This document shows positions 7,334 through 38,614 of a stretch of 38,614 nt of DNA, piece after piece. The translations under genes and the position numbers were made by a program. The stretch's first letter is position 1, and every line of letters begins with the position of its first letter. The notes beneath the pieces are model-generated. The model worked only from the letters and a program-made list of their open reading frames with translations. It ran no database searches and had not been told where the DNA came from. The DNA is from a candidate division WOR-3 bacterium (GTDB lineage: Bacteria > Hydrothermota > Tepidihabitantia > Tepidihabitantales > Tepidihabitantaceae), in contig JBDRUJ010000001.1 of assembly GCA_039801285.1 (NCBI GenBank), positions 1 to 38,614 on the forward strand, written 5' to 3'.

Positions 7334-7417
7334 TCATGCCTTCGACCGCTTACATCAATTCATTGGTCTTGATACTTCTCCAAGAGAGTGTCGCTTGGGG
7401 CGGAGCTTCGCTCTGGG

Positions 7418-7465: not shown

Positions 7466-7485
7466 GAAGCACTAGTGAGTGGTTG

Positions 7486-9590: not shown

Positions 9591-9635
9591 GCTTTACTCC
9601 TTTCGCAGCCAGAGTCCATGCTCTAACTGCGTGCC

Positions 9636-9669: not shown

Positions 9670-10026
9670 GAAAAAAACTATTTCTGTTCCAAGAGATTGC
9701 TGGGGACGCTTCTCGGTTTTTTGTCTTCTGTCCGGCAACTTACTGGGCCGGTTCATTCATCACACTCGAATCCTACCCCGTCCTCTCCTTAGTGTCAGAC
9801 CATCCTATATTTGTTTCAAAACACCGTTCCCAGAGTGTGGCGATATTGAGTGCCGGTAGCAAGTCCCCAGTCCTGAAAGCGGCAGGAAGCTGCCGTACTC
9901 CAAAATCACGCCTCAGGGTGGTAACGAACGATTGACCACATACCAGAGTGTCCTGCGTCAAGCGGTCACCTCGGGTGAAATGAAGGACAATCATCAATTA
10001 GAATCCTTTGGAGTTACATTTCCCAA

Positions 10027-22919: not shown

Positions 22920-24328
22920 TTCTCTTCTCTGCGCTCCTTGCGACTCTCTTTGACCTGTTGGCTGCCTGCACCATTGGTGCCTTCGGGCCCGGTGCGACGA
23001 TTGACGGCCGGCCCATCCTCTGGAAAAACCGTGATGTCAACAATCCCGACCAGGAGATTGGCTTTTTCAACCGGGGCCGGTTCCGATTCGTCGCCAATGT
23101 TTATGCGGGCGAGACCCTCAATGTCTGGGCCGGCATCAACGAGAAGGGCTTTGCAATCATGAACTCCAACTCCTTCAACCTCGGGGGCGATGGCGCTGCC
23201 GACGACGGGAATGTGATGAGTCTGGCGCTTGCCAACTGTGCGACGATTGACGACTTCGCCAAGCTTCTGGACTCGCTGAATGTTGTCGGTCGGGAAACGC
23301 CGGCAAACTACGGTGTCTTCGACTCCACTGGCGCAACCGCCATCTTCGAGGCGAGCAATACCTACTACACCCGGTGCAACGTCGCTGACGACTCTCTGGG
23401 CCTTTTGCTCCGTGCCAACTACTCCATGTCGGGCAGTCCCAACCGTCAGGTGGGCCGGGAGCGCTGGGAGCGGGCAATGCAGCTCACCGTGCCAGCGCGG
23501 CGCGCAAACCGGATTGACGCCCGGTTCGTGATTCAGACACTTGCGCGCGACCTCGGGACGGTGAACTTCAACCCCTATCCATTGCCCTTCGAAGGCCGGT
23601 ATCATGACCTCGATTCGGGATGTGTCCCAACCGACTCGACCATCTGCCGGCCCAAGACCCGCGCCGCATTCGTCCTTGTCGGCCCGCGACCGGACCGGCC
23701 CGCGGCTGCCGGCATGATGTGGGTTCTGCTCGGCTCACCCCTTGCCACCCTGCCCATTCCGGTATGGGTCAGTGCCGGAAGAGTTCCCAACGCCCTCAAC
23801 GGCCAGTTCCGCTCCCAAATCTGCGACGAGGCCCAACTTCTCTATCGCTATCTCTGCTCCGACCCGAACCATCCAGATGCCATCAACACTTTCCGGCTTG
23901 CCGACCTGCTTGCGGAGTTTGCCCGGACCGAATCGACCATCTTCAGCCTCGTGGCCCAGAAGGAGTCAATCTGGGGCCCGGCCGGCCCGACTCCGGCTCA
24001 GGCCGAGAGCACCACCACTACCATCTGCAACCTGGTCCTTGCTGCCTATACCAGCTTCTGGGAGAACCTTGCCCGGACTCAGAGGAAGGATGTGCCCAAG
24101 CTGTGCATCATCCCGACCATCAGCCGCAACAGTGTCACTCTTACCTGGCCCACGGGAACCGAAGTCCGCTGGGTCAGGGTTTACAACTCGGCCGGGCAAC
24201 TGGTCCATCAACGGTCGCCAGTCTCGGGAAACAACCTCCTGGTGTTGTCCGGTCTTGGGGCGGGAACCTACTTTGCGGTTGTAGCTCAACCAGAACCGGT
24301 GACCATCCCGTTTCTACTGACCGACTGA
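22898..24328 (+). CDS. Secreted N-terminal-nucleophile (Cys) hydrolase, peptidase C69/C45-like, with a T9SS C-terminal sorting domain
   Basis: The signal peptide ends ...LLAA|CT. CTIGAFGPGATIDGRPILWKNRD resembles the C69-type CT....G..AT.DGS.....N.D start of the mature enzyme. The C-terminal tail is VRVYNSAGQLV...GTYFAVV. Confidence 0.65.
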   Translation: MSKVQSLILFSALLATLFDLLAACTIGAFGPGATIDGRPILWKNRDVNNPDQEIGFFNRGRFRFVANVYAGETLNVWAGINEKGFAIMNSNSFNLGGDGAADDGNVMSLALANCATIDDFAKLLDSLNVVGRETPANYGVFDSTGATAIFEASNTYYTRCNVADDSLGLLLRANYSMSGSPNRQVGRERWERAMQLTVPARRANRIDARFVIQTLARDLGTVNFNPYPLPFEGRYHDLDSGCVPTDSTICRPKTRAAFVLVGPRPDRPAAAGMMWVLLGSPLATLPIPVWVSAGRVPNALNGQFRSQICDEAQLLYRYLCSDPNHPDAINTFRLADLLAEFARTESTIFSLVAQKESIWGPAGPTPAQAESTTTTICNLVLAAYTSFWENLARTQRKDVPKLCIIPTISRNSVTLTWPTGTEVRWVRVYNSAGQLVHQRSPVSGNNLLVLSGLGAGTYFAVVAQPEPVTIPFLLTD

Positions 24329-24865
24329 CCACCCTTTCTCCCTAGCCCGCCATAACCATTGGCCTGACTGGCAACATGTCCGCTAGCAGAAGGTCTCATA
24401 CCACATATAGATTCTATCTATGCGCCAAACATCTATTCATAGTGGAGGGGCACGCCCCGGGCGCCCCTCAGGGCAGCCCCAGGCCAGGCCGGGTTTTCGT
24501 CCCACGCCCCGGACCTTTGAGGCTAAACGCCTCTCCGTCATCTCAGACTGCCACGGGCCTGCGGTCCTCGCCGAGACAAATGGGTCTATGCCTTCAGCAC
24601 CGCGGCCAGAAGATAAGATAGGGCTCAAGATGAGCTAGACTGTTGTCCATCACCGCCTAAAGCCCCCTCGCACCCAGTAGGACCGGCTGTCCCCTCGGTG
24701 AGAGATAGCCTCTCGACCAGATTGGCTTCTCTCGGATAATGAGGAATTACCAAAACCGCCATGAGCCTCACAGGCAGCAGTCCTCTGGTAAAGCCTGGAG
24801 AGTTCTAAAATCCTGCCAGCCCAAAGCACGGCTCATTCCAGAACCGGCAGACCGTTCTCGCCCCG

Positions 24866-26350
24866 TTAGCGCACAAGAACCAGTCGAAGTGGAAAGGCCT
24901 GGTTGGTTCTTCCCAGTTGGATAAAGTAAACGCCCGAGGGAACAGGCCTGCCGGTCTGGTCCTTACCATCCCAGACAGTCCAGCTTGAAGGCTTGAGAGT
25001 TCGCACCAGCCTGCCGGCCGCATCATGGATTTCCAATGCGGCTTGTGGGTCAAAAGCCCTAGCAGTTCGAATGAATACCTCGCGGTGGAAGGGATTAGGC
25101 CCGGCTCTCACCTGCACCCTGGGAGCCTCTAATCCCTCTTTCGCTTCATCAACGCCGGGATAAACCAGGCCGAGCGAATCGGTCTTGGCAACACACCGCC
25201 CCCCAACGGCATCGCCCAGAATGAGAAAACCATGGTCGTAGGTAGTGTCAATATAGAAGGCATCACCCCTCATCTCGCAACCGAAGCGCAACTTCCGTTC
25301 CCAGAGGGGTTCACCATTTGGGCCGAAACGGTGCAACTGTGGCACCCAGATGTTCGGTGACTGGGAATAGTCTCTATAGGCACCCACCACTGCACAACCA
25401 CCGTCTGAGGTCGCGGTGACGCAACGGAAAGAGCGGTGGACATATCCACTGTCCGGGAATAGCTGGCGCCACTCCTCTCTGCCCAGCGAATCGACCTTCC
25501 AGACAAATGAACCAGTAAGCACTCCACCCCATGGGAGTTCTCCGCACTGGACATAGCCGCCGTCCCGGGTCTGAGAGGCGTTGTGCCCATGGCTAAACTC
25601 CAAACCTTCAAACCGCCTCAACCAGATAATGTTGCCAGCACTGTCGGTCTTCAGAAGACAAGCAACATCTTCGGAAGCTGGGTCCGGCCCGTTGCCACCG
25701 ATGATGTAGCCCAGGTCCCGGCACTGGCGCACCGAGGCGCCCGAACTAATGCTGTCGTCAGAAGCGGAATAGCCACGGACCCATTCCAGGTTATCATCCT
25801 TGTCCATCTTCCAGAGCTCCAGCCCTTCCTTATCTTCGGTGAATAGCTCATTGACAATTGCCGAACCGGAGTCTGTAGTGCTGCAGATGTCGTCCAACAG
25901 TAGCCTCTCTCTTCCATAGGTAAAAAACCGCACAAGGTTTCCATGCGTGTCGGCCCTGGCAAAAAACTCGTCGCAAATTGTGGTGTCAGGGCGTCTGATT
26001 ATCCAGTCCCCGCCGAATAGGATACCGCCATTCGGGGCCCAGGTGATACTCTGCGCGCCGGCGTCACTGGGGTAAGGTGGCGTATAGACCCTTTCCCAGA
26101 CCACATTGCCGAGAGAATCCAGCCTTATTACTACCGCCCCAATACGACCCGTATCATTCATGTCCTTCATACCGCATATCAGATAACCATGGTCAGGAAG
26201 TTCAATCCCTTTGATGAAGCCACAGTAATCATGGTATGGAAAGGTGCGAATAAAGGTGATGGTCGCCGTCGTAACCTGCAAAAGACCGCTGATGAACACG
26301 AGGGCTAAAACCGCCGACCGCCTTGCCGAAAAGAAAGCCAAGGGTGGCAT
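24866..26350 (-). CDS. Secreted repeat (propeller-like) protein with a T9SS C-terminal sorting domain
   Basis: 494-aa ORF with a signal peptide (LALVFISGLLQVTTA) and repeated G-rich/aromatic blade-like segments. The C-terminal tail is LEIHDAAGRLV...WDGKDQTGRPVPSGVYFIQL. Confidence 0.7.
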   Translation of the reverse strand: MPPLAFFSARRSAVLALVFISGLLQVTTATITFIRTFPYHDYCGFIKGIELPDHGYLICGMKDMNDTGRIGAVVIRLDSLGNVVWERVYTPPYPSDAGAQSITWAPNGGILFGGDWIIRRPDTTICDEFFARADTHGNLVRFFTYGRERLLLDDICSTTDSGSAIVNELFTEDKEGLELWKMDKDDNLEWVRGYSASDDSISSGASVRQCRDLGYIIGGNGPDPASEDVACLLKTDSAGNIIWLRRFEGLEFSHGHNASQTRDGGYVQCGELPWGGVLTGSFVWKVDSLGREEWRQLFPDSGYVHRSFRCVTATSDGGCAVVGAYRDYSQSPNIWVPQLHRFGPNGEPLWERKLRFGCEMRGDAFYIDTTYDHGFLILGDAVGGRCVAKTDSLGLVYPGVDEAKEGLEAPRVQVRAGPNPFHREVFIRTARAFDPQAALEIHDAAGRLVRTLKPSSWTVWDGKDQTGRPVPSGVYFIQLGRTNQAFPLRLVLVR

Positions 26351-26363
26351 CGCAGCTTCCTGT

Positions 26364-27299
26364 CTAACGGACTATTGTGAGCTTACCGGTAAGCAGCCTA
26401 GAAGGGGTCTGGATGAAGTACAGATAGACTCCAGACCGAACCGGACCGTGTTCCCAAGTCAGGTCAGCACCATCCTGCTCGGCACTCGCTCTGATACAGG
26501 CCAGGAGCGAACCGGTTGCGTTGACAACCTTCAGGCACACCGGACCGGCCGGGCACGAGATGCGAAACCTGTGCAACCGGTGTCCTGCCCGGACCTGAAC
26601 CTCAGGTTTACCTGTTCCAAAGGGATGGCCGCTCTCGCCTCCACCCCGCGCCGGGTCCTCGTCCACATAGCAAAAGAATCGATTGGAGTGGGTATCCCTT
26701 TTGCCGAACACCGCATAGAAAGTGTCTCCGACCTGACACAGCGCTGCACCCGGCTCCTGAGTCCGCGGGGTTGGTTCGCAGTATTCAATATGGTCGTTAG
26801 GATAAGTGTACCGGCAGAAAGTTTTCTCTCTCCCGGTCCTTCTGTCCGCTGGCCAGAACCGGATGGCGTAGCCACTCGCACCTGCAGCCATGGCCGCTCC
26901 ACCATTAACTATCTCCGGGAAAGTCACATTGGGCCAATACCACTCATTCTGGGCCGGGTCATAGAAGTAAAACCCTTGTGTCCTGTCCCCGCGTAGAGCC
27001 ATGACAAGCCCCATGGGATGCTCGGTCCTACCAGGCAATGGACACCAGGCCAGACAGCCACCAGCCTTCACCGGCAGGTTACTCCACATTTGGGCAAGTT
27101 CTGTCCAGCCGCTGCCTCGTGGAGACGCCCCTCGATAGGGGTCAAGTGAGTAGGCATAACGGAAGAACCTGGGACTCCCACCGCCGACAAAGGCGTAGAG
27201 AAATGCGCACGGGATACCGTTGAGCTCCCAGACGCCTCCGTAACAGAGAGCACCTCCGTCATCCACTTCTGCTGGAACATCTGGCATCCGAACCCACAT
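26364..27299 (-). CDS. T9SS-sorted secreted protein; probably the 3' part of a disrupted longer gene
   Basis: 311-aa ORF with no signal peptide of its own. The C-terminal tail is LTWEHGPVRSGVYLYFIQ. The same frame stays protein-like upstream of an in-frame TAG at 27414-27416. Confidence 0.65.
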   Translation of the reverse strand: MWVRMPDVPAEVDDGGALCYGGVWELNGIPCAFLYAFVGGGSPRFFRYAYSLDPYRGASPRGSGWTELAQMWSNLPVKAGGCLAWCPLPGRTEHPMGLVMALRGDRTQGFYFYDPAQNEWYWPNVTFPEIVNGGAAMAAGASGYAIRFWPADRRTGREKTFCRYTYPNDHIEYCEPTPRTQEPGAALCQVGDTFYAVFGKRDTHSNRFFCYVDEDPARGGGESGHPFGTGKPEVQVRAGHRLHRFRISCPAGPVCLKVVNATGSLLACIRASAEQDGADLTWEHGPVRSGVYLYFIQTPSRLLTGKLTIVR

Positions 27300-27724
27300 G
27301 TCTTGGGCAGGGATGTAGCTCCAGAAATATCGAGTTCTGTGCCCGGTGAATGCGAAGAGTCTTCCATTCGGTGGAGAAGCGAACGGGTCAGGGACATAGA
27401 CAAGGGCACCACCCTAATCAACAATTCGATATGGGTCTTCCCATGGAAGTTGTCGCCGAAGATGCCAAGTGCCCTGCGGGTTAGTAGACTCATGGTGCCA
27501 GCATTCAAAGCAGTTGTAGGGCCAGACATCACAGTCACCGTGAAGCAACCAGACCAGATTGGTAGGGTTAGGAGATGGTGAACCGGCATCTAAGTCACAC
27601 CTACCAGCAGCCAGTGCACTCCCCTCCTCAGCCGGATACCCGTGGAAATCGGCTAGTTGCCGCCACCCTCCAAAGAGGTGGGGCAGGAAACTACTAAGGC
27701 AACAATCACAGCCAAGAGTTTCAT
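27300..27724 (-). pseudogene. 5' remnant of the same gene: signal peptide in another frame, plus an in-frame TAG
   Basis: ATG at 27724 with RBS AAAGGAGG encodes MKLLAVIVALVVSCPTSLEGGGN and then TAG (27653-27655). The downstream gene frame, offset by 2, reads QLADFHGYPAEEGS...WEDPYRIVD-TAG-GGALVYVPDPF... into the 26364-27299 ORF. Confidence 0.5.
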
Positions 27725-27810
27725 ATTGTACCTCCTTTTACATCTCCGACCTGTGCGCAAGACGCAGGTCCTACTTTGCTGCTAGCTAGCACCCTTGGCT
27801 TTCTGCTCTA

Positions 27811-27838
27811 ATAATAGCGTTGGCTATCCTCCTGTCAA
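27811..27838 (-). promoter_or_regulatory. Sigma70-type promoter candidate for the disrupted secreted-protein gene
   Basis: On the minus strand: TTGACA (27838-27833), a 16-nt spacer, and TATTAT (27816-27811). Confidence 0.35.
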
Positions 27839-27916
27839 GTTCCCGTATTTTGAGACAACGGGGGACTTTCGAGGAGCTGGATATATGAGGCAACATGGGT
27901 TTCCTCAGGAGCCAAG

Positions 27917-27960
27917 CGAGCGATTTCTCCGCTCGCCCTTCGGGGCTCGGTCGAAATGAC
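27917..27960. repeat. Intergenic hairpin repeat, copy C (inverted orientation), at the 3' end of the selenium/corrinoid operon
   Basis: The reverse complement reads GTCATTTCGACCGAGCCCCGAAGGGCGAGCGGAGAAATCGCTC. Its first 16 nt are identical to copy B (17220-17235). Confidence 0.6.
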
Positions 27961-27963
27961 AGC

Positions 27964-29019
27964 TCACCCCGTTTTGGCGAAGTGGTGATTTGCGCCAGCC
28001 TCCCGGGCCGCCGTCACAAATGCCCTGATGTTTTCGGCCGGTGTCTCAATCGGCACCTCGCAGCCGGTCGCTGCCACGAACCCTTTGGGGCAGGCTTTCC
28101 CGATTGCTGTCATCCGTCCAACATCGTCTGCCACCTCCTGTGGTGTCCCAAGCCACAGTCCGGTAGTGTCAAGATTGCCGATAATCCGGCACCGGTCTCC
28201 AACCTTGGCTATCGCTTCGGCAAGTCCGATGCGGTCAATGCTCAGAAGGTCTGCACCGCTGTCGGCCATAAGTTCAATCGGAGCGGTTGTGTCGCCGCAG
28301 ATGTGGAGAATTACATCCAGGTCGTAGCGGTGCAGGAATCTGATGACCGCCTGCTCATAGGGCAGGGCAAACTGCCGGTAGTCTTCCGGAGAGATGACAC
28401 TGCCCGATGCCAGGGGGTCAACGAGAATCGGCAGGGCACCGGCATCAATCATCGCCCGGCAGAATGTTATTACCGAGCGGGTAACAAACTCCAGCAGCCG
28501 CTTGACATCATCAGGCCTTTCCACGAGGCCTAGGAGAAATGTCTCAGGGTCAACCAGTTGCTGGGCGGTGGTGAAGGGCGCGGGGATGTAGGCGAGGATG
28601 GGCACGGTGTCGGCCCGGGCCTCATAGGCGCAGCGCGCTGCCGCCCAATAGACCGGGAGCCTGCCATCGCGCATCGGGTTGATGATACCAGCCAGCGGCT
28701 CCGAGCCGTCGGGCAACTCGCGCCACCTGGGCCGAGAGAGGACCGGCAGCTCGTCCTCAGGATATTCAAACCGGGAGCCCAGCGCCTCGGCAACGATGCC
28801 CACCTCGGAAAAGAGCGAGATGAAATCGGTTCCGAACCGCTCCTGGGCCTGGAGTTGACAGCGGGCCATCACTATGCCGTCGGTATAATAATCCCGCAGG
28901 TTGGCGCCGGTAAGACGGGCTGCGGCCGCGGTCAACAGCGGAAAGACCGGGCAGCGGTCCTGCGGCTCATCCATCACCAGAAGGCCGAACCGCTCCCTGG
29001 GGGTCAGGAGGTCCTTCAT
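27964..29019 (-). CDS. URO-D-family (MtaA/MtbA-like) corrinoid methyltransferase, paralogue 2
   Basis: 351-aa ORF with URO-D-fold length. It has the H-x-C...C zinc-ligand pattern of MtaA-type enzymes (ILHICGDTT ... VAATGCEVP). It overlaps the upstream gene by 4 nt. Confidence 0.8.
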   Translation of the reverse strand: MKDLLTPRERFGLLVMDEPQDRCPVFPLLTAAAARLTGANLRDYYTDGIVMARCQLQAQERFGTDFISLFSEVGIVAEALGSRFEYPEDELPVLSRPRWRELPDGSEPLAGIINPMRDGRLPVYWAAARCAYEARADTVPILAYIPAPFTTAQQLVDPETFLLGLVERPDDVKRLLEFVTRSVITFCRAMIDAGALPILVDPLASGSVISPEDYRQFALPYEQAVIRFLHRYDLDVILHICGDTTAPIELMADSGADLLSIDRIGLAEAIAKVGDRCRIIGNLDTTGLWLGTPQEVADDVGRMTAIGKACPKGFVAATGCEVPIETPAENIRAFVTAAREAGANHHFAKTG

Positions 29020-30416
29020 CGCCGGCTCCGGAGGAGTTCGAGAAAGGCGTCAATCCGCGTTAGGGTCTGCCGGTCAATCTCCGGCCCAGGTGCACCGACA
29101 TCAAACTCCAGAATCGGCAAATCAAGCGCCTCCCGGACATAATCGGCAATCAGCCGCGACTCCATAGCACAGTGGGAACCTCCAAAGACTCCGGAAACGA
29201 TAATGCCTTCGGCACCTTGCTCCCGTGCCTGCCTGATGACCGACTCGGCACGTTGCCGGCTTGTTCCAATCAGCGATGCGGCCATGAAGGAGCGGGCAAT
29301 TGCCCTGAGCCCCTGGGTGATGTCCGACCGGTCTGTTTTGACCGAACAGAAGTCAATCTCCGCCAATGCCTGGTTGATAACGAACTCCGTTCCCACCACC
29401 CTAGCTCCCCGGTCCTCGACATAGCACAAAAGCAGAGGGTCGGCCGGAGGCGTGACCCAGACCAGGCGCAAGGCATCTTCGGACAGAACCCTTTGACCAT
29501 GTTGAACCCGGGACCGGGCTAGCGCCAGGAGATGTGCAACAATTTCCGTCCACTCAGCAATGTCCGAATAGTAGTGCAGGTTTCCGAACTCGACAACCAT
29601 CATCTCCAGGGCGGGCAGGACACCTTGACCATAGGCCAGCTTGCGCAGTTGGGCAACCATCCGCCGCACCCGGTTGGTCCGGCTGATACCGGCAGAAAGT
29701 TCGGCAGGGGTCAACCGGTGGCCGGTCAACTCCTCAAGCCTTGCGACAACCCGGCGATACTCCTCAACCAAGAGCTCAACCGCACCGCCGTTCTGCTCCT
29801 GGCGCAACGGGGTCTCCACCCAGAGGACATCACCGACCAGCCACTCAACCAGCTGTTCGACACCCGAATAGTCGTCACAGGAGGCGCCAGTGGCGGCAAT
29901 CACCAGGTCCGGGTCGGGAAAGTAGGCGTGTTTGGCAAATGCCCCGAGCGCTGCCCGGGAGAAGCAGCTCGCCTCACCGATGCCCAGCCGGGCCGCAGCC
30001 TCGAACAGGACATTGCTCTCCATGACAAACGGTGTCCACCAGATGCAGTCGGGATAGAACGCCAGACAACCGGGAAATGAGTTGACAATCACCGGCAGGG
30101 CACCAAGGTCGCCCATCGTGGCAATCACCCGGCGGCCGGTCTGCCGGGCCCGGAAGAGCCGCTCGGTCTCGTTCTGGACAAAACCCCACATCCGCAGGCA
30201 GGCAAGGGAGTTGTCAAACTTCAGCCGGCGCAGATGCCGGGCACCGTAAAGGGCAAAGGTCTGGGGCGGGAACAGATACTTGGACCACGACTCCTGATTC
30301 GGTGGAAAATAGTGATAGCGCTCAATCAGTTCGTCGGGAATCTTCTGAAACAGTTCGCCCCACTCTTCGAATGTGACTCTTGCGGCGGGCGGGTTTTGGT
30401 AATGGGCCCGGCTCAC
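29016..30416 (-). CDS. 2-hydroxyacyl-CoA dehydratase / benzoyl-CoA reductase BcrC-BadD-HgdB family protein (large subunit-like)
   Basis: 466-aa ORF. It has the HGD-D-family pattern (RVIATMGDLGALPVIVNSFPG, conserved Cys positions ...GEASCFSRAALG..., ...ATGASCDDY...). It overlaps the upstream gene by 4 nt. Confidence 0.7.
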   Translation of the reverse strand: MSRAHYQNPPAARVTFEEWGELFQKIPDELIERYHYFPPNQESWSKYLFPPQTFALYGARHLRRLKFDNSLACLRMWGFVQNETERLFRARQTGRRVIATMGDLGALPVIVNSFPGCLAFYPDCIWWTPFVMESNVLFEAAARLGIGEASCFSRAALGAFAKHAYFPDPDLVIAATGASCDDYSGVEQLVEWLVGDVLWVETPLRQEQNGGAVELLVEEYRRVVARLEELTGHRLTPAELSAGISRTNRVRRMVAQLRKLAYGQGVLPALEMMVVEFGNLHYYSDIAEWTEIVAHLLALARSRVQHGQRVLSEDALRLVWVTPPADPLLLCYVEDRGARVVGTEFVINQALAEIDFCSVKTDRSDITQGLRAIARSFMAASLIGTSRQRAESVIRQAREQGAEGIIVSGVFGGSHCAMESRLIADYVREALDLPILEFDVGAPGPEIDRQTLTRIDAFLELLRSRR

Positions 30417-31534
30417 AGGTTCTCCAGAAAGGCCTCAATCCTTGTCCGGACCTGCTGACGATTCTCGGTGGAGTAGTCGCTATCGAGGTGGAGGACCGGA
30501 ATTCCGAGCACTGCTTTGAGTCGGGGGACCTCAAAACTCCAGGCATCACAGTAGAGCAGTGTCTTGAACACCAGCCCCTGGACCCGGCGTCTTCTGATGA
30601 GCTCATGCGCGGCCTGATAGAGACCGCTGTTGGGGCGGCGGCACATGCAGGCGGTGCGGGTGAAATAGAAGCGGGCAAGTGCCGCAAGCGGTTCATCACC
30701 GGGTATCAGGTCCGAATCGAACCAGCGCGTGCCGGTGCACCAGAGGTCGGCAACCACAAGGGCACGTTCTTCAATTGTCTCCAGAATCCACCGGTCGTCT
30801 TCGGTAACGATGCTGCCGCCCGCCATCAGCCGGGGCCGGAGGCCAACCGCCTGAGGCCTCACGGCCGAGACAAGATGCTCCAGAAGCGATGACAGCAGTT
30901 CAGCTCCGGCATTGGGGTCAAGGAGCCAGGCAACCGCGGCGATATCCAAGAGCTGACTTTGGGAAATCGGCGGATGGTCGGCATCGCGCAGGCTGTCCAG
31001 CCTTCTCAACCCTTGGCGCAGCCGGTTGAAGACCACAATCGCCTCCACCAGGCTGTTATCTGTCAGACCCGACCCGCAGAAGGACCCGAGCCAGTCGGCA
31101 AGGAGCTTCAGTTGGCGCCGGAACTCGTCGATTCTGTGAGGGAGCGGCTCGGAGGTCCTAGAGAGATACACCTGAAATGTCGGGATGGAAAGGTGATGTC
31201 CAATTACCTCCGGCAACCGGCGCATCATGTCACAGGTGTTCACCGCCACCACCGCATCAACCAGCCGGAACACCGGGTCGGATGGAAAATTGCCCAGACA
31301 GGCACGGCAGAACGGACAGGCATCGGCCCGCAAAAACCGTCTGCCGCTATCTGCCGCCTCACTTCCACCCCGCATCAGCCGGACCGGAATCGCACCGGCC
31401 GCCCGAATCAATTCAACCGGTGCGTAGAGGCAGAAGTAGCCGATGACCTTCTGCCCCCCTTCCTTCAGCTTTTGCAGCTCCTCAACCCGTGCGCTACGCA
31501 ACTGGGCAAGCCTTGCGCCAATCCTCATTGCCAT
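30413..31534 (-). CDS. 2-hydroxyacyl-CoA dehydratase family protein (second subunit-like)
   Basis: 373-aa ORF. The N-terminal KVIGYFCLYAPVELIRAAGAIPVRL is the typical HGD-D start. Cys-rich segments are ADACPFCRACLG and VNTCDMM. It overlaps the activase gene by 10 nt. Confidence 0.7.
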   Translation of the reverse strand: MAMRIGARLAQLRSARVEELQKLKEGGQKVIGYFCLYAPVELIRAAGAIPVRLMRGGSEAADSGRRFLRADACPFCRACLGNFPSDPVFRLVDAVVAVNTCDMMRRLPEVIGHHLSIPTFQVYLSRTSEPLPHRIDEFRRQLKLLADWLGSFCGSGLTDNSLVEAIVVFNRLRQGLRRLDSLRDADHPPISQSQLLDIAAVAWLLDPNAGAELLSSLLEHLVSAVRPQAVGLRPRLMAGGSIVTEDDRWILETIEERALVVADLWCTGTRWFDSDLIPGDEPLAALARFYFTRTACMCRRPNSGLYQAAHELIRRRRVQGLVFKTLLYCDAWSFEVPRLKAVLGIPVLHLDSDYSTENRQQVRTRIEAFLENL

Positions 31535-32931
31535 GGTTCCAGGTTCATCGAAGTGATAAATGCCGTCTCAAAGTCGGGATGACGGCTCAGCTCTATTTCC
31601 TGACAGCGCCGGGCAACAGACTCAGCAATCCTCAGAAGCTCACGGTTGTAGGTGGCACGAATTGCTCCGAGAAGCGCCAGGTTGGGATGCTGACGGATGA
31701 TTCTAGGCCGGACAGCGGGCAGAAGTCCAATTCTGATTGCCGATTCCGGCCTGAGGGCTGCTCCGAACCGGCCGGTAATGAACAACCTTTCGATTGCCGT
31801 TGCCGAAACGCCCCATTCCCGGAAAAGAATCCGGACCGCTGCAGCAATCGCCGCTTTGGCAAGTTGAACTTCACGGAGGTCGGCTTGAGAGAGATAGACA
31901 CCGTTCTCATTATCACGAAACAACCAGAGTCGTTTGTCATACCGCAGCCGGCCGGTGCAGTCTATTCGGCCGGTTTCCAATCCCGCGGCCACCGCATCCA
32001 GGACACCCGAGCCGCAGATTGTTGCCGGTTGACGCTTTCCGATGATATCGAGACGGAATCCGTTACGGCCTGGCCTCACCGCCGTGACCGCTCCCGGCTG
32101 TGCCAGACTGCCGCACTCCAGACTCGGCCCCTCAAATGCCGGCCCGGCCGCAGTGGAACAGACCAGCAGTCGCTCCGAATTTCCGAGGACAACTTCACCA
32201 TTGGTACCGGCGTCAACGAGAAGCGCAAGCCTCTTGCTCCGGTGCATCCCTGAGGCAAGAATTGCGGCCGTGCAGTCACTGCCAACAAAGCTGCCCAGAA
32301 GCGGAAGGACCCTGATTCGGCCTTGACGCACCATCCGCTTCAAGGGCAGTTTTGAGCGATAGGGATAATGTCCCAGACCGGCCGGACTTCGGTCAAAAAG
32401 AAAGTGAATCATCACCGTATTACCAACCACCGTTGCCGGCTCCCTCGGTGCTATTCCAACTTGGCGCATAAAACCGGTCAGGACATCCTTCACCGGCGCC
32501 GCTCTGCGAACCTTTCGTTCCCGGGCAATCCGGCTCATCACATCAAAACCGAATACAATCTGAGGATTGAGCAGTTCCCGACGCCGGACCACGCGCCGAC
32601 TGAGAACATCCACCGCTGCCAAGGAGATTGTTGTCGTGCCGATGTCGGCAGCCAGCCGGCACACGACGCCTGACGCCGGAGGCTCGACGCCCAACATTGA
32701 AAAGGGTGGGCTGCCGGCTCGGGGCCGGGAGCTGACGACCGTAACCGGTTCCACCGGAACGAACTGACAGGCGAGGACCACCCTTCTCCCATGCCGGTCC
32801 TGAATTTGAACCCGGCACCGGCCACATTTTCCCTTACCACCGCACTCCGACCGGACAACAACCCCAACCTCCGCCAGCAACTGACTCAGCCGCTTGCCAT
32901 GCTGCGGCAGGATGGTTCTGACATCCGACAT
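31525..32931 (-). CDS. Corrinoid reductive activase (RACo/RamA-type): N-terminal [2Fe-2S] ferredoxin domain plus ASKHA ATPase domain
   Basis: 468-aa ORF. CGGKGKCGRCRV...LAC is a plant-type 2Fe-2S motif. DIGTTTISLA and LLVDAGTNGEV are ASKHA phosphate-binding motifs. Its start abuts the stop of the upstream methyltransferase gene. Confidence 0.8.
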   Translation of the reverse strand: MSDVRTILPQHGKRLSQLLAEVGVVVRSECGGKGKCGRCRVQIQDRHGRRVVLACQFVPVEPVTVVSSRPRAGSPPFSMLGVEPPASGVVCRLAADIGTTTISLAAVDVLSRRVVRRRELLNPQIVFGFDVMSRIARERKVRRAAPVKDVLTGFMRQVGIAPREPATVVGNTVMIHFLFDRSPAGLGHYPYRSKLPLKRMVRQGRIRVLPLLGSFVGSDCTAAILASGMHRSKRLALLVDAGTNGEVVLGNSERLLVCSTAAGPAFEGPSLECGSLAQPGAVTAVRPGRNGFRLDIIGKRQPATICGSGVLDAVAAGLETGRIDCTGRLRYDKRLWLFRDNENGVYLSQADLREVQLAKAAIAAAVRILFREWGVSATAIERLFITGRFGAALRPESAIRIGLLPAVRPRIIRQHPNLALLGAIRATYNRELLRIAESVARRCQEIELSRHPDFETAFITSMNLEPWQ

Positions 32932-33939
32932 CTAAGCCTGCCACTCCCGCGCCACCTGAACCAGTGCCCGGACGTTTTCGGATGGCGCATCTACCGGCAC
33001 ATCACAGGCCGAAGAGAGAACGAGGCTGGGCAGCCCCCTTTTCAGACATTCATGGGCAGCAGTCCGGACCTGTTCTGGTGTTCCCTCAAGCAGCAGCGAA
33101 GTGGAAACATTACCCATCACCACCGTTTTGGGCCCGAGCCGTTTTCGAACTAGGTTCATGTCCATCTCGTCAATACTCAAAACATCGGCACCGGTCTCCC
33201 TCATCATTGGCAATATCGCTGAGCTGTCACCGCAGATGTGCAGACCGGTCCAACTCCGTTGGTGATGAATCTCTTGGACGAGCGCGGTCAAATAGGGCTC
33301 GGCAAACTCCTGGAACATCGTGGGACTGATAATACTGCCTGAGGCCATCGGGTCGCCGATAAAGGGCACGCCTCCTCTATTCACAATCGCCCTGACGAAC
33401 CGCCGTTGATTCTCCAGTGCCGCCTTAAGAAACCGGTGGGCCCGGCTGGGCTCTTCAAGCAGGTCGGTGAGAAACCGCTCGGTTCCGGCGAGAAAGGATG
33501 CCAGAGAGAAGGGGCCCTTCAGAGATGTCACAACAAAAACCTCATTGCCGACCAGTTCCTTGAGCCGCTCGGTCGCCTCCAGCACCACCGGCATCCGGCC
33601 CGAGGCCTCCGGGTCGGCCGGCTCAAGTCCTGCCTCATCAGCCGGCTCCAATAACACCGGTGCATCATCATGAGGAATTGCCACTTGGCAACCCATAGCC
33701 TCCGCCTCAACCAGGACGTCGCTGAAGACCATCACGAGGTCATAGCGATAATGTTGATAGGCAGCGAATAGAACCTGAGCCAGAACATCGGGTCTGGTCA
33801 GGGTTAGGTGCAGTGGCGTCCGGGCAAGTCGCGCGGCATGATTGGCCACCACCAGTGGAAAGACAACCGGTTGGTTTATCAGGTTGCCTTGGAGCAGGGC
33901 TGTGACTCTCTCCCTGCCGGTTCTGTCAGGAACCACCAC
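32932..33939 (-). CDS. URO-D-family (MtaA/MtbA-like) corrinoid methyltransferase, paralogue 1
   Basis: 335-aa ORF. It has the H-x-C...C zinc-ligand pattern (GLHICGDSS ... LSSACDVP). It overlaps the corrinoid-protein gene by 14 nt. Confidence 0.8.
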   Translation of the reverse strand: MVVPDRTGRERVTALLQGNLINQPVVFPLVVANHAARLARTPLHLTLTRPDVLAQVLFAAYQHYRYDLVMVFSDVLVEAEAMGCQVAIPHDDAPVLLEPADEAGLEPADPEASGRMPVVLEATERLKELVGNEVFVVTSLKGPFSLASFLAGTERFLTDLLEEPSRAHRFLKAALENQRRFVRAIVNRGGVPFIGDPMASGSIISPTMFQEFAEPYLTALVQEIHHQRSWTGLHICGDSSAILPMMRETGADVLSIDEMDMNLVRKRLGPKTVVMGNVSTSLLLEGTPEQVRTAAHECLKRGLPSLVLSSACDVPVDAPSENVRALVQVAREWQA

Positions 33940-34573
33940 CAGTCAGCCGCTCAATCTCAAGGACTGCGCCATGGGCATCGGGTGCATAGCCGTCCGCGCC
34001 GATGCGCCGGGCAAACTCTGATGTCACCGGTGCGCCACCGACAATCACCTTAACCCGTTCGCGCAGTCCCGACCGCTTCAGCGCCTCAATCACCTTCCCC
34101 ATCTTCGGCATTGTGGTGGTCATGAGTGATGAGAGCCCAATCACCCGAGTGCCCTCCTCGGCCGCCTTGACAAATGCCGCAACCGGCACATCCCGTCCGA
34201 GGTCAAGGACCTCAAACCCTGCGGCCTCGACCATAACCTTGACGATGTTCTTGCCGATGTCGTGGATGTCGCCCTGCACCACACCCAGCGCAACCCGGCC
34301 TCGGCCCCGCGGCCGGATGGTCAGCCCTTCCTTCAGGATGTCAAAGCCCGCGTACATCGCCTTGGAGGCAGCCAGAACCTGCGGCACAAAAAACTCCTTA
34401 GCCGCGAACTTCTCGCCCACCCGGCGCATGCCCATTGCCAAGCCCTGATTGATTGCCAGTTCAGCCGCTACGCCATTCTCAATGGCCTGCTGCGCGAGGC
34501 GGACAACTCGTTCAACCTTCATCTCAACAACCGCCTGCGCCAGCTGCGCCAGCAGTTCGGAACATTCCGCCAT
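33926..34573 (-). CDS. Corrinoid (cobalamin-binding) methyl-carrier protein
   Basis: 215-aa ORF with an N-terminal helical cap domain followed by a Rossmann B12-binding domain. The latter carries the base-off/His-on DxHxxG motif (VQGDIHDIGKN) and SSLMTTT...GG. Confidence 0.9.
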   Translation of the reverse strand: MAECSELLAQLAQAVVEMKVERVVRLAQQAIENGVAAELAINQGLAMGMRRVGEKFAAKEFFVPQVLAASKAMYAGFDILKEGLTIRPRGRGRVALGVVQGDIHDIGKNIVKVMVEAAGFEVLDLGRDVPVAAFVKAAEEGTRVIGLSSLMTTTMPKMGKVIEALKRSGLRERVKVIVGGAPVTSEFARRIGADGYAPDAHGAVLEIERLTGGGS

Positions 34574-34612
34574 TAAGTTATCTTACCAATTGCGCGCCGG
34601 TTGGCAACAGAA

Positions 34613-35650
34613 TCAAATCACCCGCACCACTCCGGGGCCTGACTCGACCCTGCCAACTATTGCCGCCGCCTCCACGCCTAAACTGTGCAGCCGCTCGAGA
34701 AGTCCGCCGCTCCGCTCGTCAGGGACTGAAATCAAAAGCCCGCCCGAAGTCTGGGCATCGCACAGTAGCAGCCGTTGCTCTTCGCTGACCGAAGGGGCGA
34801 AGCGGGCGCGGTCCTTCATGAACTCATAGTTCTTTATTGAGCCGCCTGGAAACAGACCCTGCGGTGCCAGCTGGAGCGCCTCGGGGATGACCGGAACCTT
34901 ACCGGCATCAATCACAACCTCCACCCTGCTGGCCTGCGCCATCTCCCAGACATGACCCAACAGGCCGAAACCGGTCACATCGGTTGCGGCATTCACCCCC
35001 ACCGCAGCCATTATCTCAGCCGCAACCCGGTTGAGACTGGTCATCACCCGGTTGGCCTGTTTGACTGCTGAAATCGGCGCCATGTCGGCGCGGGCCGCGG
35101 TGGTAATGATGCCGGTGCCGAGCGGTTTCGTTAGAATCAGCACATCCCCTGGTCTGGCTCCGGCATTGGTGACAATCCGTTCCGGATGGACCAGCCCGAC
35201 GACCGCCAGCCCACACTTCAACTCAACATCCCTGGTGGTGTGACCACCGGCAATCACTGCATCCGCCTCTCTCACCTTTTCCCAGGCACCGGCCAGAATG
35301 GTCTGGACTGTGGTGTGGGCCAGCTCGCCGACCGGGAATCCAAGAATGCAGAGTGCTGCCACCGGTCTCCCACCCATCGCATAGACATCGGAAAGGGAGT
35401 TGGCAGCGGCAACTTGACCGAAGATGAACGGGTCTTCACACACCGGTGTCAGCACATCAACGGTCAAAACCAGTGCCTCGTCCGGTCCAATCCGGAAGAC
35501 GCCGGCGTCGTCAAATGTGTCACCACCGACCAAGAGGTCGGGATGGGTAAAGGCCGGAAGCCGCTGCAGAACCTGCAGCAGGTCTGCCTGGCAGACCTTG
35601 CTTGCTCAGCCGGCGGCCTTGGCAAAGTCGAAGAGTCGGCGTCCGCTCAT
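34613..35650 (-). CDS. selD: Selenide, water dikinase (selenophosphate synthetase) SelD, selenocysteine-containing, with in-frame UGA at 35606-35608
   Basis: The ORF track starts at 35533. The same frame continues upstream through a single TGA to ATG at 35650 (RBS GAGGGGAAG): MSGRRLFDFAKAAG-U-ASKVCQADLLQVLQRLPAFTHPDLLVGGDTFDDAGVF. U aligns with Cys17 and the following K with Lys20 of the E. coli SelD motif GAGCGCK. Total length is 345 aa, typical of SelD. Confidence 0.88.
35563..35605 (-). promoter_or_regulatory. Candidate bacterial SECIS stem-loops immediately 3' of the selD UGA
   Basis: On the mRNA, UGA is followed by GCAAGCAA and then GGUCUGCCAGGCAGACC (7-bp stem, 35597-35581). Next comes GCUGCAGGUUCUGCAGC (7-bp stem, 35579-35563). 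The first loop region contains the GGUCUGC string that I recall from the E. coli fdhF SECIS apex. Confidence 0.45.
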
Positions 35651-35662
35651 AAACTTCCCCTC

Positions 35663-36256
35663 TCAGATGCGCACAACCTGCGTCCCGGACATCATGATTT
35701 CTGCCAGTTCGAACATGTTGGATACCAGGCCGATTCGGACCTGTTCCTTGAGTCCGTAGTAATCAAGACAGGTTCCGCACACGCGGATTGTTACTCCCAG
35801 TTCCTCAAGTTTCCTGAGCACATCCAAAACTGCAGAACCCTCGACTGCCAACTTGACACCACCATGAACAAGGAGAGGCTGGGACGGCCGGGGCTCCACC
35901 TCGCAAAGCGAACGGAGGAAAAGCTGCATCAGGAGCCTGCCCAGCTTCTCACTGCCCGAGCCGAATCCTTCAGAGCTAATGAGCACAACGCTGCTTGCCG
36001 GTATCCGTTGCGGCTCTTGGGATTTGCCGGGTTTGAGCTCGACCACATAGATTCCCGGCCCCGCTTCTGAATAGGACACTTCGTAGCCCCGGCTCTGGGC
36101 AAACCGGGCAATGTTGGCGCGCGCTTCCGGGCTGCCAGTAATCACCCGGACAGTCTTGCCTGGATTCGCCTCGAGGGCGGCGCGGGTGCGGACCACCGGT
36201 TCCGGACAGACCAGACCACGGACATCCACCTCTAGCGCAAGAGATTCACTATTCAT
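35663..36256 (-). CDS. yedF: YedF-like selenium metabolism protein (TusA/SirA-like domain fused to a DsrE-like domain)
   Basis: The start is chosen at ATG 36256 (MNSESLALEVDVRGLVCPEP...) because GAAGGAGG lies 5 nt upstream, and because the extra 47 N-terminal aa of the ORF-track version look non-coding. The CPxP motif of TusA-like sulfur/selenium carriers is present. The C-terminal half is DsrE-like (VVLISSEGFGSG...VRVCGTCLDYYG). Confidence 0.75.
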   Translation of the reverse strand: MNSESLALEVDVRGLVCPEPVVRTRAALEANPGKTVRVITGSPEARANIARFAQSRGYEVSYSEAGPGIYVVELKPGKSQEPQRIPASSVVLISSEGFGSGSEKLGRLLMQLFLRSLCEVEPRPSQPLLVHGGVKLAVEGSAVLDVLRKLEELGVTIRVCGTCLDYYGLKEQVRIGLVSNMFELAEIMMSGTQVVRI

Positions 36257-36551
36257 GGATGCCTCCTTCTGGAAGATAGGTGCTGACTGTATCCGGTTTG
36301 ATATTCTGACGGGCAAGAATTGTGAGTGCCGGGGCAAGTTGACTGGTATCAAGCACCAGAACTGCTCCGCATCCGGCAACTCGGCGGGGAGCGACAATCA
36401 CATCAATCCCATTTTCTCTGAGTAACTGACCAGCACAAAGGAGGGAACGGATTGTGGAGAATGAAAGTGCAGTTAGCTCTGGAACGAACGGCTCCAAGGT
36501 GTCTGCACGGGGCGAACCGCTCCGCATCACTCCATCAGTCATGTTTGCCAC
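36249..36551 (-). CDS. DUF3343-like putative Se/S carrier protein
   Basis: 100-aa ORF. The core ALSFSTIRSLLCAGQLLRENGIDVIVAPRRVAGCGAVLVL fits the DUF3343 pattern (helix, G-I, P-x-P-R-x-x-x-x-CG-x-x-L). It overlaps yedF by 8 nt. The exact start is uncertain. Confidence 0.6.
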   Translation of the reverse strand: MANMTDGVMRSGSPRADTLEPFVPELTALSFSTIRSLLCAGQLLRENGIDVIVAPRRVAGCGAVLVLDTSQLAPALTILARQNIKPDTVSTYLPEGGIHE

Positions 36552-36648: not shown

Positions 36649-37308
36649 TCATCGGACTATCACCTTCCTGACTGCCGATTCAGAACCACTGTTCATTCTG
36701 AAGAGATAGACACCGGCAGGCAGGTAGCAGAGGCCGTTCAAGCCGGGCCGCAATTCCATCACCTTGCGGCCGGAGATATCGAACAGGCAAGCGGTGACCC
36801 CATCAGACAGAAACAAAAATCGGCGCACGAAAGTTCCTTCATTCATCGTTCGGGTAGAACCGTCCATCCTTTCCTCAATCCCGGCGCCAACGATTGTGTG
36901 GGTGGCAATTGACTCAGCCAGAGCCGGGTTGCCGAGCGAGCGGACCCTGAGGCTGACAATCTCTTCGCCCTGGGTCGTGGTGGTAAAGACCGACACCTCA
37001 GGAGTGGTATCTTGAGCACCCACATCAAGGGTGTCGTACATCAGAACCCCGGGCTCGGTGCATAGGCCGCGAACACAGTAGATAACCGACCAGCCGGGAA
37101 CCGCTTGGATAACACGACAATCAAACTCATATACATCCGGCTCAGTGCCGGTGTTGGTCAGGGTGAAGTGGAAGATGGCCTCAGCCCCAGGAGAGACCCT
37201 TTGCACCGTATCCCCTCGACAATAGAAGTCGAATCCGTAGCCGGCGAATGCCAAGCCAATATCAGCAAGAAGCAGCCCACAAATCAGCACCAGTCGTTTC
37301 ATCTTCAC
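36649..37308 (-). CDS. Secreted hypothetical protein with a T9SS C-terminal sorting domain
   Basis: 219-aa ORF with a signal peptide (MKMKRLVLICGLLLADIGLAFA). The C-terminal tail is LFDISGRKV...AGVYLFRMNSG...KVIVR. Confidence 0.65.
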   Translation of the reverse strand: MKMKRLVLICGLLLADIGLAFAGYGFDFYCRGDTVQRVSPGAEAIFHFTLTNTGTEPDVYEFDCRVIQAVPGWSVIYCVRGLCTEPGVLMYDTLDVGAQDTTPEVSVFTTTTQGEEIVSLRVRSLGNPALAESIATHTIVGAGIEERMDGSTRTMNEGTFVRRFLFLSDGVTACLFDISGRKVMELRPGLNGLCYLPAGVYLFRMNSGSESAVRKVIVR

Positions 37309-38084
37309 CTCCCTGAAATAAAGTCGGTCCGGGCCGCTTGGAGCACCCGGCGGGTTCTAGGCTCTTGGACAAAGACAACCGCGTGGAGTTGCCGGGGATT
37401 CCAGAAGCCGGCCCGAACGAATTGCTCCTCTAATCTGATGGTGTCGGCACGGCTCAGCCAGATGGGACGGCCGTTGGGCCCGGGCAGAAGCGCCCGCATG
37501 ACAGAGTTGAAGACCGAATCGGTTGCTCCGCTCAGGGTGGCGCGAACACTGTCCTCAGTGATGACGACAAAGAGCCTGAGGCTCTCAGCCGGCGTTGAGT
37601 CCACACCACCGGCATCAACCGTGACGAGCCCTCCGCTTGAATCGAGCACCGCCGTGACATTGAGCTGGGCCTTTGGCGTCACGCTCCGGCTGGCCAGGAT
37701 GTAGTTGCGGAAGGTTTCGTAATTATGCTCAGGTCCGGGTGTCCTGACCACCGCACCGCCATCAAACACCGTTGCCGGCTCACCACCGGTCTCATAGTAG
37801 AGCCGGCGCCGCGCCTCAACATACTCGGGCGAGAGGGTGTCGCCGGCAATGCGGCGGTGATAGGCAATTACCACCACACTGTCCCGGAGCTCCCGCGCCA
37901 GGCTTTCAAGTGTGTGGGCCGCATAGGGACAATAGACGCAGCGCTGCCAGGTGAACAGCTCGGCCAGGACCACCCGGTTGGTCGGCACCAGCGGCACCAA
38001 AGGTGCATCCGAGCAGCCAGGGAGCCCGGCGAGGCCCAAGATGTTCAGTTGCACGATGAGCCTCACCACGCTCCTGCCGGCCAT
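37305..38084 (-). CDS. Thioredoxin-fold lipoprotein with a CxxC motif (Omp28-related/TlpA-like)
   Basis: 259-aa ORF with a lipobox-like LAGLPGCS. VVLAELFTWQRCVYCPYA is a thioredoxin-like CxxC context. It overlaps the downstream gene by 4 nt. Confidence 0.55.
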   Translation of the reverse strand: MAGRSVVRLIVQLNILGLAGLPGCSDAPLVPLVPTNRVVLAELFTWQRCVYCPYAAHTLESLARELRDSVVVIAYHRRIAGDTLSPEYVEARRRLYYETGGEPATVFDGGAVVRTPGPEHNYETFRNYILASRSVTPKAQLNVTAVLDSSGGLVTVDAGGVDSTPAESLRLFVVITEDSVRATLSGATDSVFNSVMRALLPGPNGRPIWLSRADTIRLEEQFVRAGFWNPRQLHAVVFVQEPRTRRVLQAARTDFISGR

Positions 38085-38087
38085 TTC

Positions 38088-38614
38088 TTAGCGGGCCACA
38101 ACCACCCTGGCCCTGGCGGAATGACTCCCTGCGGCGACGCAGATGATATAACTACCAGTGGGCACCGGTCTGTTGTGGTCGTCACGCAGGTTCCAGAAGA
38201 CTATGCCCGACTCAACTAGGCCTTGCCCGAGATGCCGGACCAGCCGACCGGCCGCATCGTAAGCGAGGATGTCCGCCTTCGAGCCGGCCGGAACCTGATA
38301 GCCGACTTCAACCCGTTCTCGCACCGGGCTGCCACTGACAGCTACCTTCAGAGGAAGCGGCTTAGGTCCCTCCGCCACCCCGACCTGCGGACTGCACCAG
38401 AAGTCGTCAATGTACCAGCCTTCGGCCACCGTGTTGTAGTCGCTGATGAACCGGAACCGGAGCTGGACGGTCTGACCCCGGAACGGGCCGAGGTCAAAGT
38501 TCTCCTCAACCCAGCCCGACGAACTCCCATCCCAGGACCCGAGCTGCCGCCAGAACGGCGAGCCGTTGTTGATGTCGAGCATGCAGAAGTCGTAAGTCGC
38601 CTCAGTCTCGTAGT
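38088..38614 (-). CDS. 3' part of a large secreted protein with a T9SS C-terminal sorting domain (partial; continues beyond the window)
   Basis: The frame is open to the window edge (..YETEATYDFCMLDINNG..). The C-terminal tail is ILAYDAAGRLV...WNLRDDHNRPVPTGSYIICV...VVVAR. Confidence 0.6.
   Translation of the reverse strand, partial: YETEATYDFCMLDINNGSPFWRQLGSWDGSSSGWVEENFDLGPFRGQTVQLRFRFISDYNTVAEGWYIDDFWCSPQVGVAEGPKPLPLKVAVSGSPVRERVEVGYQVPAGSKADILAYDAAGRLVRHLGQGLVESGIVFWNLRDDHNRPVPTGSYIICVAAGSHSARARVVVAR

Follow-up and report, generated by a model that had tools for sequence, protein, structure and literature searches.

A WOR-3 operon linking selenophosphate synthesis to a corrinoid methyl-transfer cassette with a double-cubane-like protein pair: a candidate system for methyl-selenium salvage

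The subject of this work is a run of nine minus-strand genes between positions 36551 and 27964 of a 38,614-nt stretch of DNA (hereafter the window; positions 1 to 38,614 of contig JBDRUJ010000001.1, assembly GCA_039801285.1), the source contig belonging to a metagenome-assembled genome (MAG) of the candidate division WOR-3 (protein P0001 match, 100% identity). On balance, these genes seem to constitute a composite selenium-handling operon of three units, working in the direction of methyl-selenium salvage. The first unit, consisting of a DUF3343-like protein, YedF and SelD, would take reduced selenium to selenophosphate. In the second, one of two MtaA-like zinc enzymes would demethylate methylselenol, dimethylselenide or a similar compound, passing the methyl group to the Co(I) form of a corrinoid protein and thereby freeing selenolate or selenide. 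The other MtaA-like enzyme would unload methyl-Co(III) onto a thiol-type acceptor, while a RACo-type activase would use ATP to re-reduce corrinoid accidentally oxidised to Co(II). Selenide would then be handed on to SelD by YedF and the DUF3343-like protein. The third unit would be a heteromeric reductase core of the double-cubane type, built from the proteins here called HgdS, with a six-cysteine cluster site, and HgdL, a paralogue with four conserved cysteines, and energised in relatives by an archerase-type ATPase. The task of this pair may be to reduce a selenium species at low potential, with a diselenide, Se(0) or a C-Se bond as the target, either before or after demethylation.

Gene content and coupling of the operon

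All nine open reading frames (ORFs) listed in an earlier note on this DNA were found at the coordinates given there. As read from the sequence, neighbouring genes either overlap by 4-14 nt (g1/g2 by 11 nt, g4/g5 by 14 nt, g6/g7 by 10 nt, g7/g8 and g8/g9 by 4 nt each) or follow one another at gaps of 0-39 nt (g2/g3 12 nt, g3/g4 39 nt, with g5 and g6 abutting). The selD/corrinoid-gene gap of 39 nt holds no terminator-like site, and a weak promoter-like match (9/12 positions) is located in the same gap. Family calls were made by Pfam and NCBIfam/TIGR profile searches, complemented with structure comparison for selected proteins, and they agree with the assignments of the earlier note, the one for g1 resting below threshold and on an uncertain start.

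This first gene (g1, 36249..36551, minus strand, as for all genes of the operon) encodes a small DUF3343/Se_S_carrier-like protein that reaches 21.7 bits with Pfam PF11823 (cut-off 25), and alternative start codons are present at 36542 and 36527. Its homologues hold the same DUF3343-YedF-SelD position in three related loci (L010, L024 and L047; L numbers designate the loci compared in this study). The following YedF (g2, 35663..36259; TIGR03527 180 bits, cut-off 110) joins a TusA to a DsrE-like domain, and its translation shows both the CPxP (VCPEP) and the CGxC (CGTC) motif. SelD (g3, 34613..35650; TIGR00476 334 bits, cut-off 125) starts at 35650 and is interrupted by an in-frame TGA at 35608-35606, which is codon 15 (AKAAG-U-ASKV). 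This codon aligns with Cys in L002, L012, L020, L028 and L051, and with TGA in L004, L007, L010, L024, L047 and L042; in the twelve related SelD genes it is either TGA or Cys, the usual selenocysteine (Sec)/Cys signature, which bears out the proposal that the window SelD is a selenoprotein. Besides SelD, no aligned in-frame TGA codons were found in the cassette proteins. Folding of the RNA predicts a candidate bacterial Sec insertion sequence (SECIS) hairpin with an 8-bp stem and a 3-nt loop at 35580..35598 on the minus strand, beginning 11 nt past the UGA.

The corrinoid methyl-transfer unit consists of g4, g5, g6 and g9, all on that one strand. The g4 product (33926..34573) is a methyltransferase-cognate corrinoid protein with the Pfam B12-binding_2 and B12-binding domains and the DxHxxG motif (GDIHDIG), scoring 203 bits with TIGR02370 against a cut-off of 215. 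Two MtaA-like zinc methyltransferases, here called MlpA (g5, 32932..33939; LHICGD...SSACDVP) and MlpB (g9, 27964..29019; LHICGD...ATGCEVP), each match URO-D with 235 bits, are both MtaA-CmuA-like within this family, and score below the MtaA and MtbA equivalog cut-offs. When aligned to the Methanosarcina mazei MtaA structure 4AY7 (MlpA 109 bits, MlpB 107 bits), both match it at the H-x-C and distal Cys ligand positions, and the His-Cys-Cys zinc motif (H-x-C...C) of both enzymes is kept in every cassette lineage. Furthermore, g6 (31525..32931) encodes an ATP-dependent corrinoid reductive activase of the RACo/RACE type, with an N-terminal 2Fe-2S domain (Fer2 21.8 bits, cut-off 21), a middle domain (Raco_middle 88.6 bits) and a C-terminal ASKHA domain (RACo_C_ter 207 bits), and with the motifs CGGKGKCGRC and DIGTTT present. 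Between g6 and g9 lie the genes of HgdS and HgdL, which are discussed below.

The cassette and its selenium genes across genomes

For the census of gene neighbourhoods, each GTDB species, represented by one genome, was scanned with HgdL as the anchor, and the window proteins were mapped onto the loci obtained. The scan revealed 48 species-level loci, distributed among WOR-3, Stahlbacteria, LCP-89, Calditrichota, Tariuqbacter and one Planctomycetaceae MAG, with the conserved order Cor-MlpA-RACo-HgdS-HgdL-MlpB-Act, in which Cor denotes the corrinoid protein and Act an activator ATPase. Because the six genes from Cor to MlpB recur in the same order in 48 loci, their arrangement is not a matter of chance. 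RACo is present in 39 of 44 loci; L011, L015, L018, L035 and L038 are devoid of it between MlpA and HgdS, and L018 also lacks MlpA and the activator, so that Cor-HgdS-HgdL-MlpB is left.

A canonical selenium gene was found within the fetched flanks in 18 of 50 loci, which represents a lower bound, many loci being located on short contigs. These genes occur in at least five independent arrangements. The DUF3343-YedF-SelD trio is present in four loci. In L030 (12062-15631), L033 (8005-15431) and L036 (13204-17520), a lineage with HgdL about 46% identical to that of the window, selA and selB come immediately after the cassette, with tRNA-Sec found also in L033 and L036. In L042, a Sec-containing SelD encoded divergently upstream (~1536-2849, minus strand of the locus) carries a ferredoxin-thioredoxin-reductase-B-like (FTR-B) domain fused in frame to its N-terminus, while in L046 DUF3343-YedF is located 10 kb downstream. 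That the arrangements differ so much points to a functional link rather than to inherited synteny, and the association of the cassette with selenium genes, already put forward in the earlier note, is thus upheld.

In regard to the gene directly upstream of the corrinoid gene, 34 loci are fully covered. There, a UbiE-like methyltransferase dependent on S-adenosylmethionine (SAM) occupies this position in 14 loci, and is found within 10 kb in more, while selD occupies it in 10, with two further cases at contig edges, all of them from one WOR-3 subclade; the remaining loci have other upstream neighbours. In about two thirds of the loci where this side can be judged, selD is not the adjacent gene. 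In six Calditrichota-type loci, among them L037 (5202-5618), a gene for a 138-aa EamA-type half-transporter is inserted between the UbiE-like and corrinoid genes. Genes encoding FTR-B-like domains recur beside the UbiE-like gene in many cassette loci.

The HgdS/HgdL pair and the flanks of the operon

HgdS (g7, 30413..31534) is an HGD-D subunit (251 bits) resembling the double-cubane cluster protein (DCCP), with DCCP 6ENO as its best solved relative (132 bits) and 199 bits with NF040772 (cut-off 350). Throughout the cassette loci it retains six Cys in common with DCCP; of the published seven-Cys motif, only the second position is missing. HgdL (g8, 29016..30416), a divergent paralogue of 466 aa and the marker of the cassette, shows 22% identity to HgdS, matches HGD-D over residues 152-462 (120 bits) and obtains 69 bits with NF040772 against the same cut-off. 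Its invariant Cys are four (C124, C151, C180 and C416). The AlphaFold model of HgdL (pLDDT, the predicted local distance difference test, 82.9) matches DCCP over the full length, with a template-modelling score of 0.70-0.78, and superposes full-length on the BzdNO and HadBC subunits as well. With only 36 clusters (50% identity) reaching E < 1e-30 in a set of 1.84 billion representatives, and more than 120 close homologues, mostly from WOR-3, HgdL belongs to a small new family with four cysteines.

The likeness to DCCP/DCCP-R of Carboxydothermus hydrogenoformans (PDB 6ENO, 7YYL) therefore comprises the fold and motif Cys of HgdS, the superposition of the HgdL model, the archerase ATPase encoded beside the pair in relatives, and the statistical tie of the family to SelD. 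On the other hand, DCCP is a homodimer of one protein, while here two distant paralogues are present, one with four conserved Cys; both remain under the NF040772 cut-off, and the ATPase is missing from the window. A protein of 867 aa (P0131), in which an HgdL-like half is fused to a bona fide double-cubane half (480 bits), supports a complex of the HgdL:HgdS type. Its locus reads UbiE-HgdS-fusion-Act and contains no corrinoid genes. The corrinoid-free module of UbiE-like methyltransferase, HgdS, HgdL (in P0131 with the double-cubane fusion) and activator was observed in L055/L056 (6125-11365), and in L051 (6547-12341) a corrinoid-free UbiE-HgdS-HgdS-HgdL-Act is flanked by selA and selD. We conclude that HgdS/HgdL/Act constitutes a separate module, in many cases together with the UbiE-like enzyme, and that the WOR-3/Calditrichota cassette interleaves it with the corrinoid unit. 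It is a tentative possibility that HgdS/HgdL, together with the archerase in relatives, is the obligate catalytic partner of the corrinoid unit, namely an ATP-driven reductase of very low potential that would cleave or reduce a selenium species (C-Se bond, diselenide or Se(0)) so that selenide reaches SelD.

In relatives, Act is a BcrAD/BadFG archerase-type ATPase of 250 aa (TIGR00241 247 bits). It is located directly 3' of MlpB in 41 of the 43 loci that reach that far, being missing only in L018 and in the window, the closest relatives of which retain it. At the expected position (27300..27963) no gene is present, and a tblastn search with two cassette activators revealed no activator gene or remnant anywhere in the window. 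Due to this absence, three options present themselves for the HgdS/HgdL pair of the window: it is served by a gene at another place in the genome, it relies on RACo, or it is inactive. In place of the activator and the subsequent AAT-like/IspG/MurA-like block of relatives, the window contains, at 24866-27963, 665 bp without an ORF and two proteins with tails of the type IX secretion system (T9SS). A strong promoter-like site (11/12 positions) is found at 27838-27811.

On the opposite side, three genes co-directional with the operon were found at 36649..38614 on the minus strand by Pfam/NCBIfam matches: a MAM/T9SS-tail protein cut by the end of the window, an Omp28/thioredoxin-like CxxC lipoprotein (37305-38084), and a T9SS-tail protein (36649-37308). 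The trio gives weak matches to the model of Omp28-related selenoproteins (Omp28_seleno), with Cys in place of Sec, and in 11-15 WOR-3 loci the same three surface-protein genes are found upstream of either selD or the gene of the corrinoid protein. Since these genes are co-directional and syntenic with selD in relatives, the transcription unit may be longer than nine genes and take in the upstream trio. The upstream trio, and the absence here of the activator that ends the cassette elsewhere, had gone unnoticed in the earlier note. A search with Rfam at gathering thresholds, covering the window and seven related loci, detected no riboswitch near the operon; in those seven loci, the tRNA-Sec of L036 was the sole match.

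The genes around the operon are housekeeping ones (16S rRNA, GroEL, RsmG, YebC, RuvCAB, ParAB, IspG and others). A complete 16S rRNA gene stands alone at 5478-7021, and no 23S rRNA is present within the window. The stretch after it (7000-10000) has a low GC content of 0.46-0.51, compared with about 0.60, and holds a minus-strand ORF of 587 aa (7486-9249) with no Pfam match. The cumulative GC skew has its maximum near 23 kb (window 22000-25000), and at this peak the coding strand turns from plus to minus, with convergent genes; parAB is located within about 5 kb.

Relation to known systems and alternative explanations

The core of the explanation offered here has been anticipated. In their 2023 preprint, Kountz and Balskus defined corrinoid 'mlp gene clusters' and, building on the work on SdmABC of Methanococcus voltae, proposed methyl-selenium salvage as their function; many of these clusters adjoin selD, selAB, Sec lyase, and double-cubane proteins with their reductase, and Sec machinery occurs in 87% of mlp host species (PMC10418091). 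The enzyme ClMlp2 was found to move methyl between methylcobalamin and selenide in vitro, with weak activity on sulfide (PMC10418091). SdmABC is needed for the use of dimethylselenide (work cited in PMC11097638). Furthermore, HGD-D subunits and an activase were listed by Lin et al. in 2015 among the STRING partners of YedF, YedE and DUF3343 (PMC5322559), and Haft and Gwadz found 955 of 970 strong double-cubane proteins in SelD-containing assemblies (10.1101/2022.07.06.499078).

The interpretation given in the earlier note is therefore only partly new; it is also only in part supported. The protein families, the likeness to Sdm and the tie to selenium stand. The salvage idea had been published by Kountz and Balskus, including clusters with selD and double-cubane proteins (PMC10418091); the remark that HGD-D proteins had been described in no selenium or corrinoid pathway no longer holds (PMC5322559; 10.1101/2022.07.06.499078), and the missing activator was overlooked. 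The cassette is set apart by its two Mlp2-like enzymes, the integral HgdS/HgdL pair with its new paralogue family, the phyla in which it is found, and a linkage to selD, selAB and tRNA-Sec that varies among loci.

As an Mlp reference, one type 1 cluster (L052) was used, from Acetoanaerobium noterae, a species in the Kountz and Balskus list. Its order, Mlp1-like, Mlp2-like, Cor, Mlp3-like, Ram and a second Mlp2-like gene, mirrors that of C. ljungdahlii in their Table S1 (PMC10418091), and of its proteins the one following Cor scores highest with MtaA (156 bits), in keeping with its designation as Mlp3-like. A Peptoclostridium match was discarded as a reference, being an unrelated corrinoid/UroD pair linked to sugar transport. 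The g4 protein is 47% identical to the A. noterae corrinoid protein. MlpA scores 141 and 155 bits with the two Mlp2-type proteins, 97 with Mlp3 and 35 with Mlp1, and the corresponding values for MlpB are 185 and 162, 97, and 31 bits. In a neighbour-joining tree, both cassette clades group with the Mlp2-type enzymes, apart from MtaA, Mlp3 and Mlp1, with bootstraps of 25-55%. Judged by this single reference cluster, the cassette looks to carry two Mlp2/SdmBC-like enzymes and no Mlp3, both enzymes being closest to its Mlp2 proteins rather than to MtaA/Mlp3 or O-demethylases.

Type 1 mlp clusters share with the cassette at least two MtaA-like proteins with the His-Cys-Cys zinc site, a corrinoid protein, a bacterial RACE/Ram activase, the lack of a tetrahydrofolate (H4folate) methyltransferase, and a position beside selD and double-cubane proteins, for which methyl-selenide metabolism was proposed. 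They are defined by core genes no more than 2 kb apart, by the absence of a tetrahydrofolate methyltransferase within 20 kb, and by the presence of an Mlp2 together with an Mlp3. Here, the end of RACo (31525) and the start of MlpB (29019) are separated by 2.5 kb, filled by HgdS and HgdL, so that on the letter of this operational distance the cassette falls outside. In the window, the Pfam scan of the main ORFs (130 aa or longer; about 2 kb covered on the upstream side) detected no Pterin_bind or MtrH family, that is, no H4folate methyltransferase. Unlike the type 1 clusters, the cassette looks to pair two Mlp2-like enzymes, with neither Mlp3 nor Mlp1 when compared with the one reference cluster, and its hosts WOR-3, Calditrichota, Stahlbacteria and LCP-89 are absent from the published organism list. 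On this evidence, the cassette appears to resemble SdmABC of M. voltae and M. maripaludis more than a strict type 1 cluster: both combine a corrinoid protein with two MtaA-like methyltransferases of the Mlp2 class, and both are tied to selenium supply, the Sdm system being induced by selenium starvation. However, SdmABC is archaeal, with coenzyme M as the presumed acceptor, no RACo, HGD-D pair, SelD or YedF is encoded next to it, and its function, unlike that of the cassette, has genetic support. With MtaABC and MtsAB of methanogens it shares methyl transfer between Co(I) and methyl-Co(III) on a small corrinoid protein and an MtaA-fold zinc enzyme activating a thiolate-type nucleophile, but MtaB, MttB or any other substrate-specific methyltransferase outside UroD is absent, and the host is not a methanogen.

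Several observations weigh against the salvage operon as outlined. The DUF3343 assignment of g1 is below threshold; the 74-nt stretch with the SECIS candidate exceeds shuffled sequences only weakly (z = -1.57), so that the hairpin is not statistically distinctive; the Mlp2 assignment depends on one reference cluster and low bootstraps; and selD is not adjacent in 24 of the 36 loci with a judgeable upstream side. In addition, the activator ATPase is absent from the window, so the reductase pair is maybe inactive or served from elsewhere, and the commonest upstream neighbour of the cassette, a SAM-dependent methyltransferase, fits a methylating direction as well as salvage. In that opposite direction, SAM, via the UbiE-like enzyme, or another donor would methylate the corrinoid and, through it, selenide or selenols, thereby buffering or volatilising excess selenium. 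The UbiE-like gene directly upstream in 14 loci, the weak NCBIfam similarity of its product to arsenite methyltransferases and to the corrinoid-protein-associated methyltransferase CpaM, and the only published Mlp2 assay, which ran in the methylation direction, are all consistent with it. Still, we consider such a function unlikely: the UbiE-like gene was not found in the window, where the cassette is coupled to SelD, YedF and DUF3343, consumers of reduced selenium; the M. voltae genetics favour demethylation (PMC11097638, PMC10418091); and UbiE-HgdS-HgdL-Act exists without a corrinoid gene, so the methyltransferase may belong to the reductase module.

Alternatively, the substrates could be methyl-sulfur compounds (methanethiol, dimethylsulfide or species derived from methylthio-adenosine), as for the 'non-selenium' mlp clusters, with HgdS/HgdL in a role like that of the MarHDK reductase and with the selenium neighbours reflecting merely a shared chemistry of sulfur and selenium. 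The His-Cys-Cys zinc site cannot distinguish between the two elements, ClMlp2 has its weak sulfide activity, selD is non-adjacent in two thirds of the loci, and the published non-selenium mlp clusters are paired with another ATP-dependent reductase. Against this, genes of the Sec pathway (selD, selA, selB, tRNA-Sec, YedF, DUF3343 and the FTR-B-SelD fusion) are found close to the cassette again and again, in arrangements independent of one another, and no cysteine, methionine or methionine-salvage genes are among the recurrent neighbours, which makes sulfur substrates quite unlikely. A different methylated metalloid or organometal (arsenic, tellurium or mercury) is more improbable still. It would be handled in a manner akin to the selenocysteine-assisted organometallic (SAO) systems that co-occur with double-cubane proteins, and the tracking of the SAO system by these proteins would agree with that, as would the weak match of the UbiE-like neighbour to arsenite methyltransferase models; yet its scores are far under every curated cut-off, and no ars, mer or sao genes are present in the window or among the recurrent neighbours. 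Finally, corrinoid protein, two methyltransferases and activase make up the generic architecture of methylotrophic and O-demethylase systems, and an ordinary system of this kind for energy and carbon could stand beside selD by chance. This seems extremely unlikely, as the selenium-gene linkage recurs across lineages, the zinc site is Cys-Cys and not carboxylate, the Pfam scan revealed no H4folate or MtrH-type methyltransferase in 28 kb, and the sole structure match of the O-demethylase type, CdmB, reaches 23 bits compared with about 108 for MtaA. In particular, an O-demethylase or methylamine system was rejected on account of the zinc ligands, the lack of an H4folate methyltransferase in the window scan and the weak similarity to CdmB.

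If the proposed partnership of HgdS/HgdL with the corrinoid unit is true, it would provide the first physiological reaction for the double-cubane family and a new association of a DCCP-type reductase with a corrinoid methyltransferase. In the cassette, Sec machinery, a corrinoid methyl-transfer set and a DCCP-like pair are joined into one conserved unit that occurs across several uncultured phyla. Both the substrates of double-cubane proteins and the still hypothetical bacterial route from methylated selenium to selenophosphate could be addressed with this cassette, which represents a compact, expressible set of six to eight genes. The proposed trait of selenium salvage would thereby be extended to widespread lineages of sediment and groundwater.

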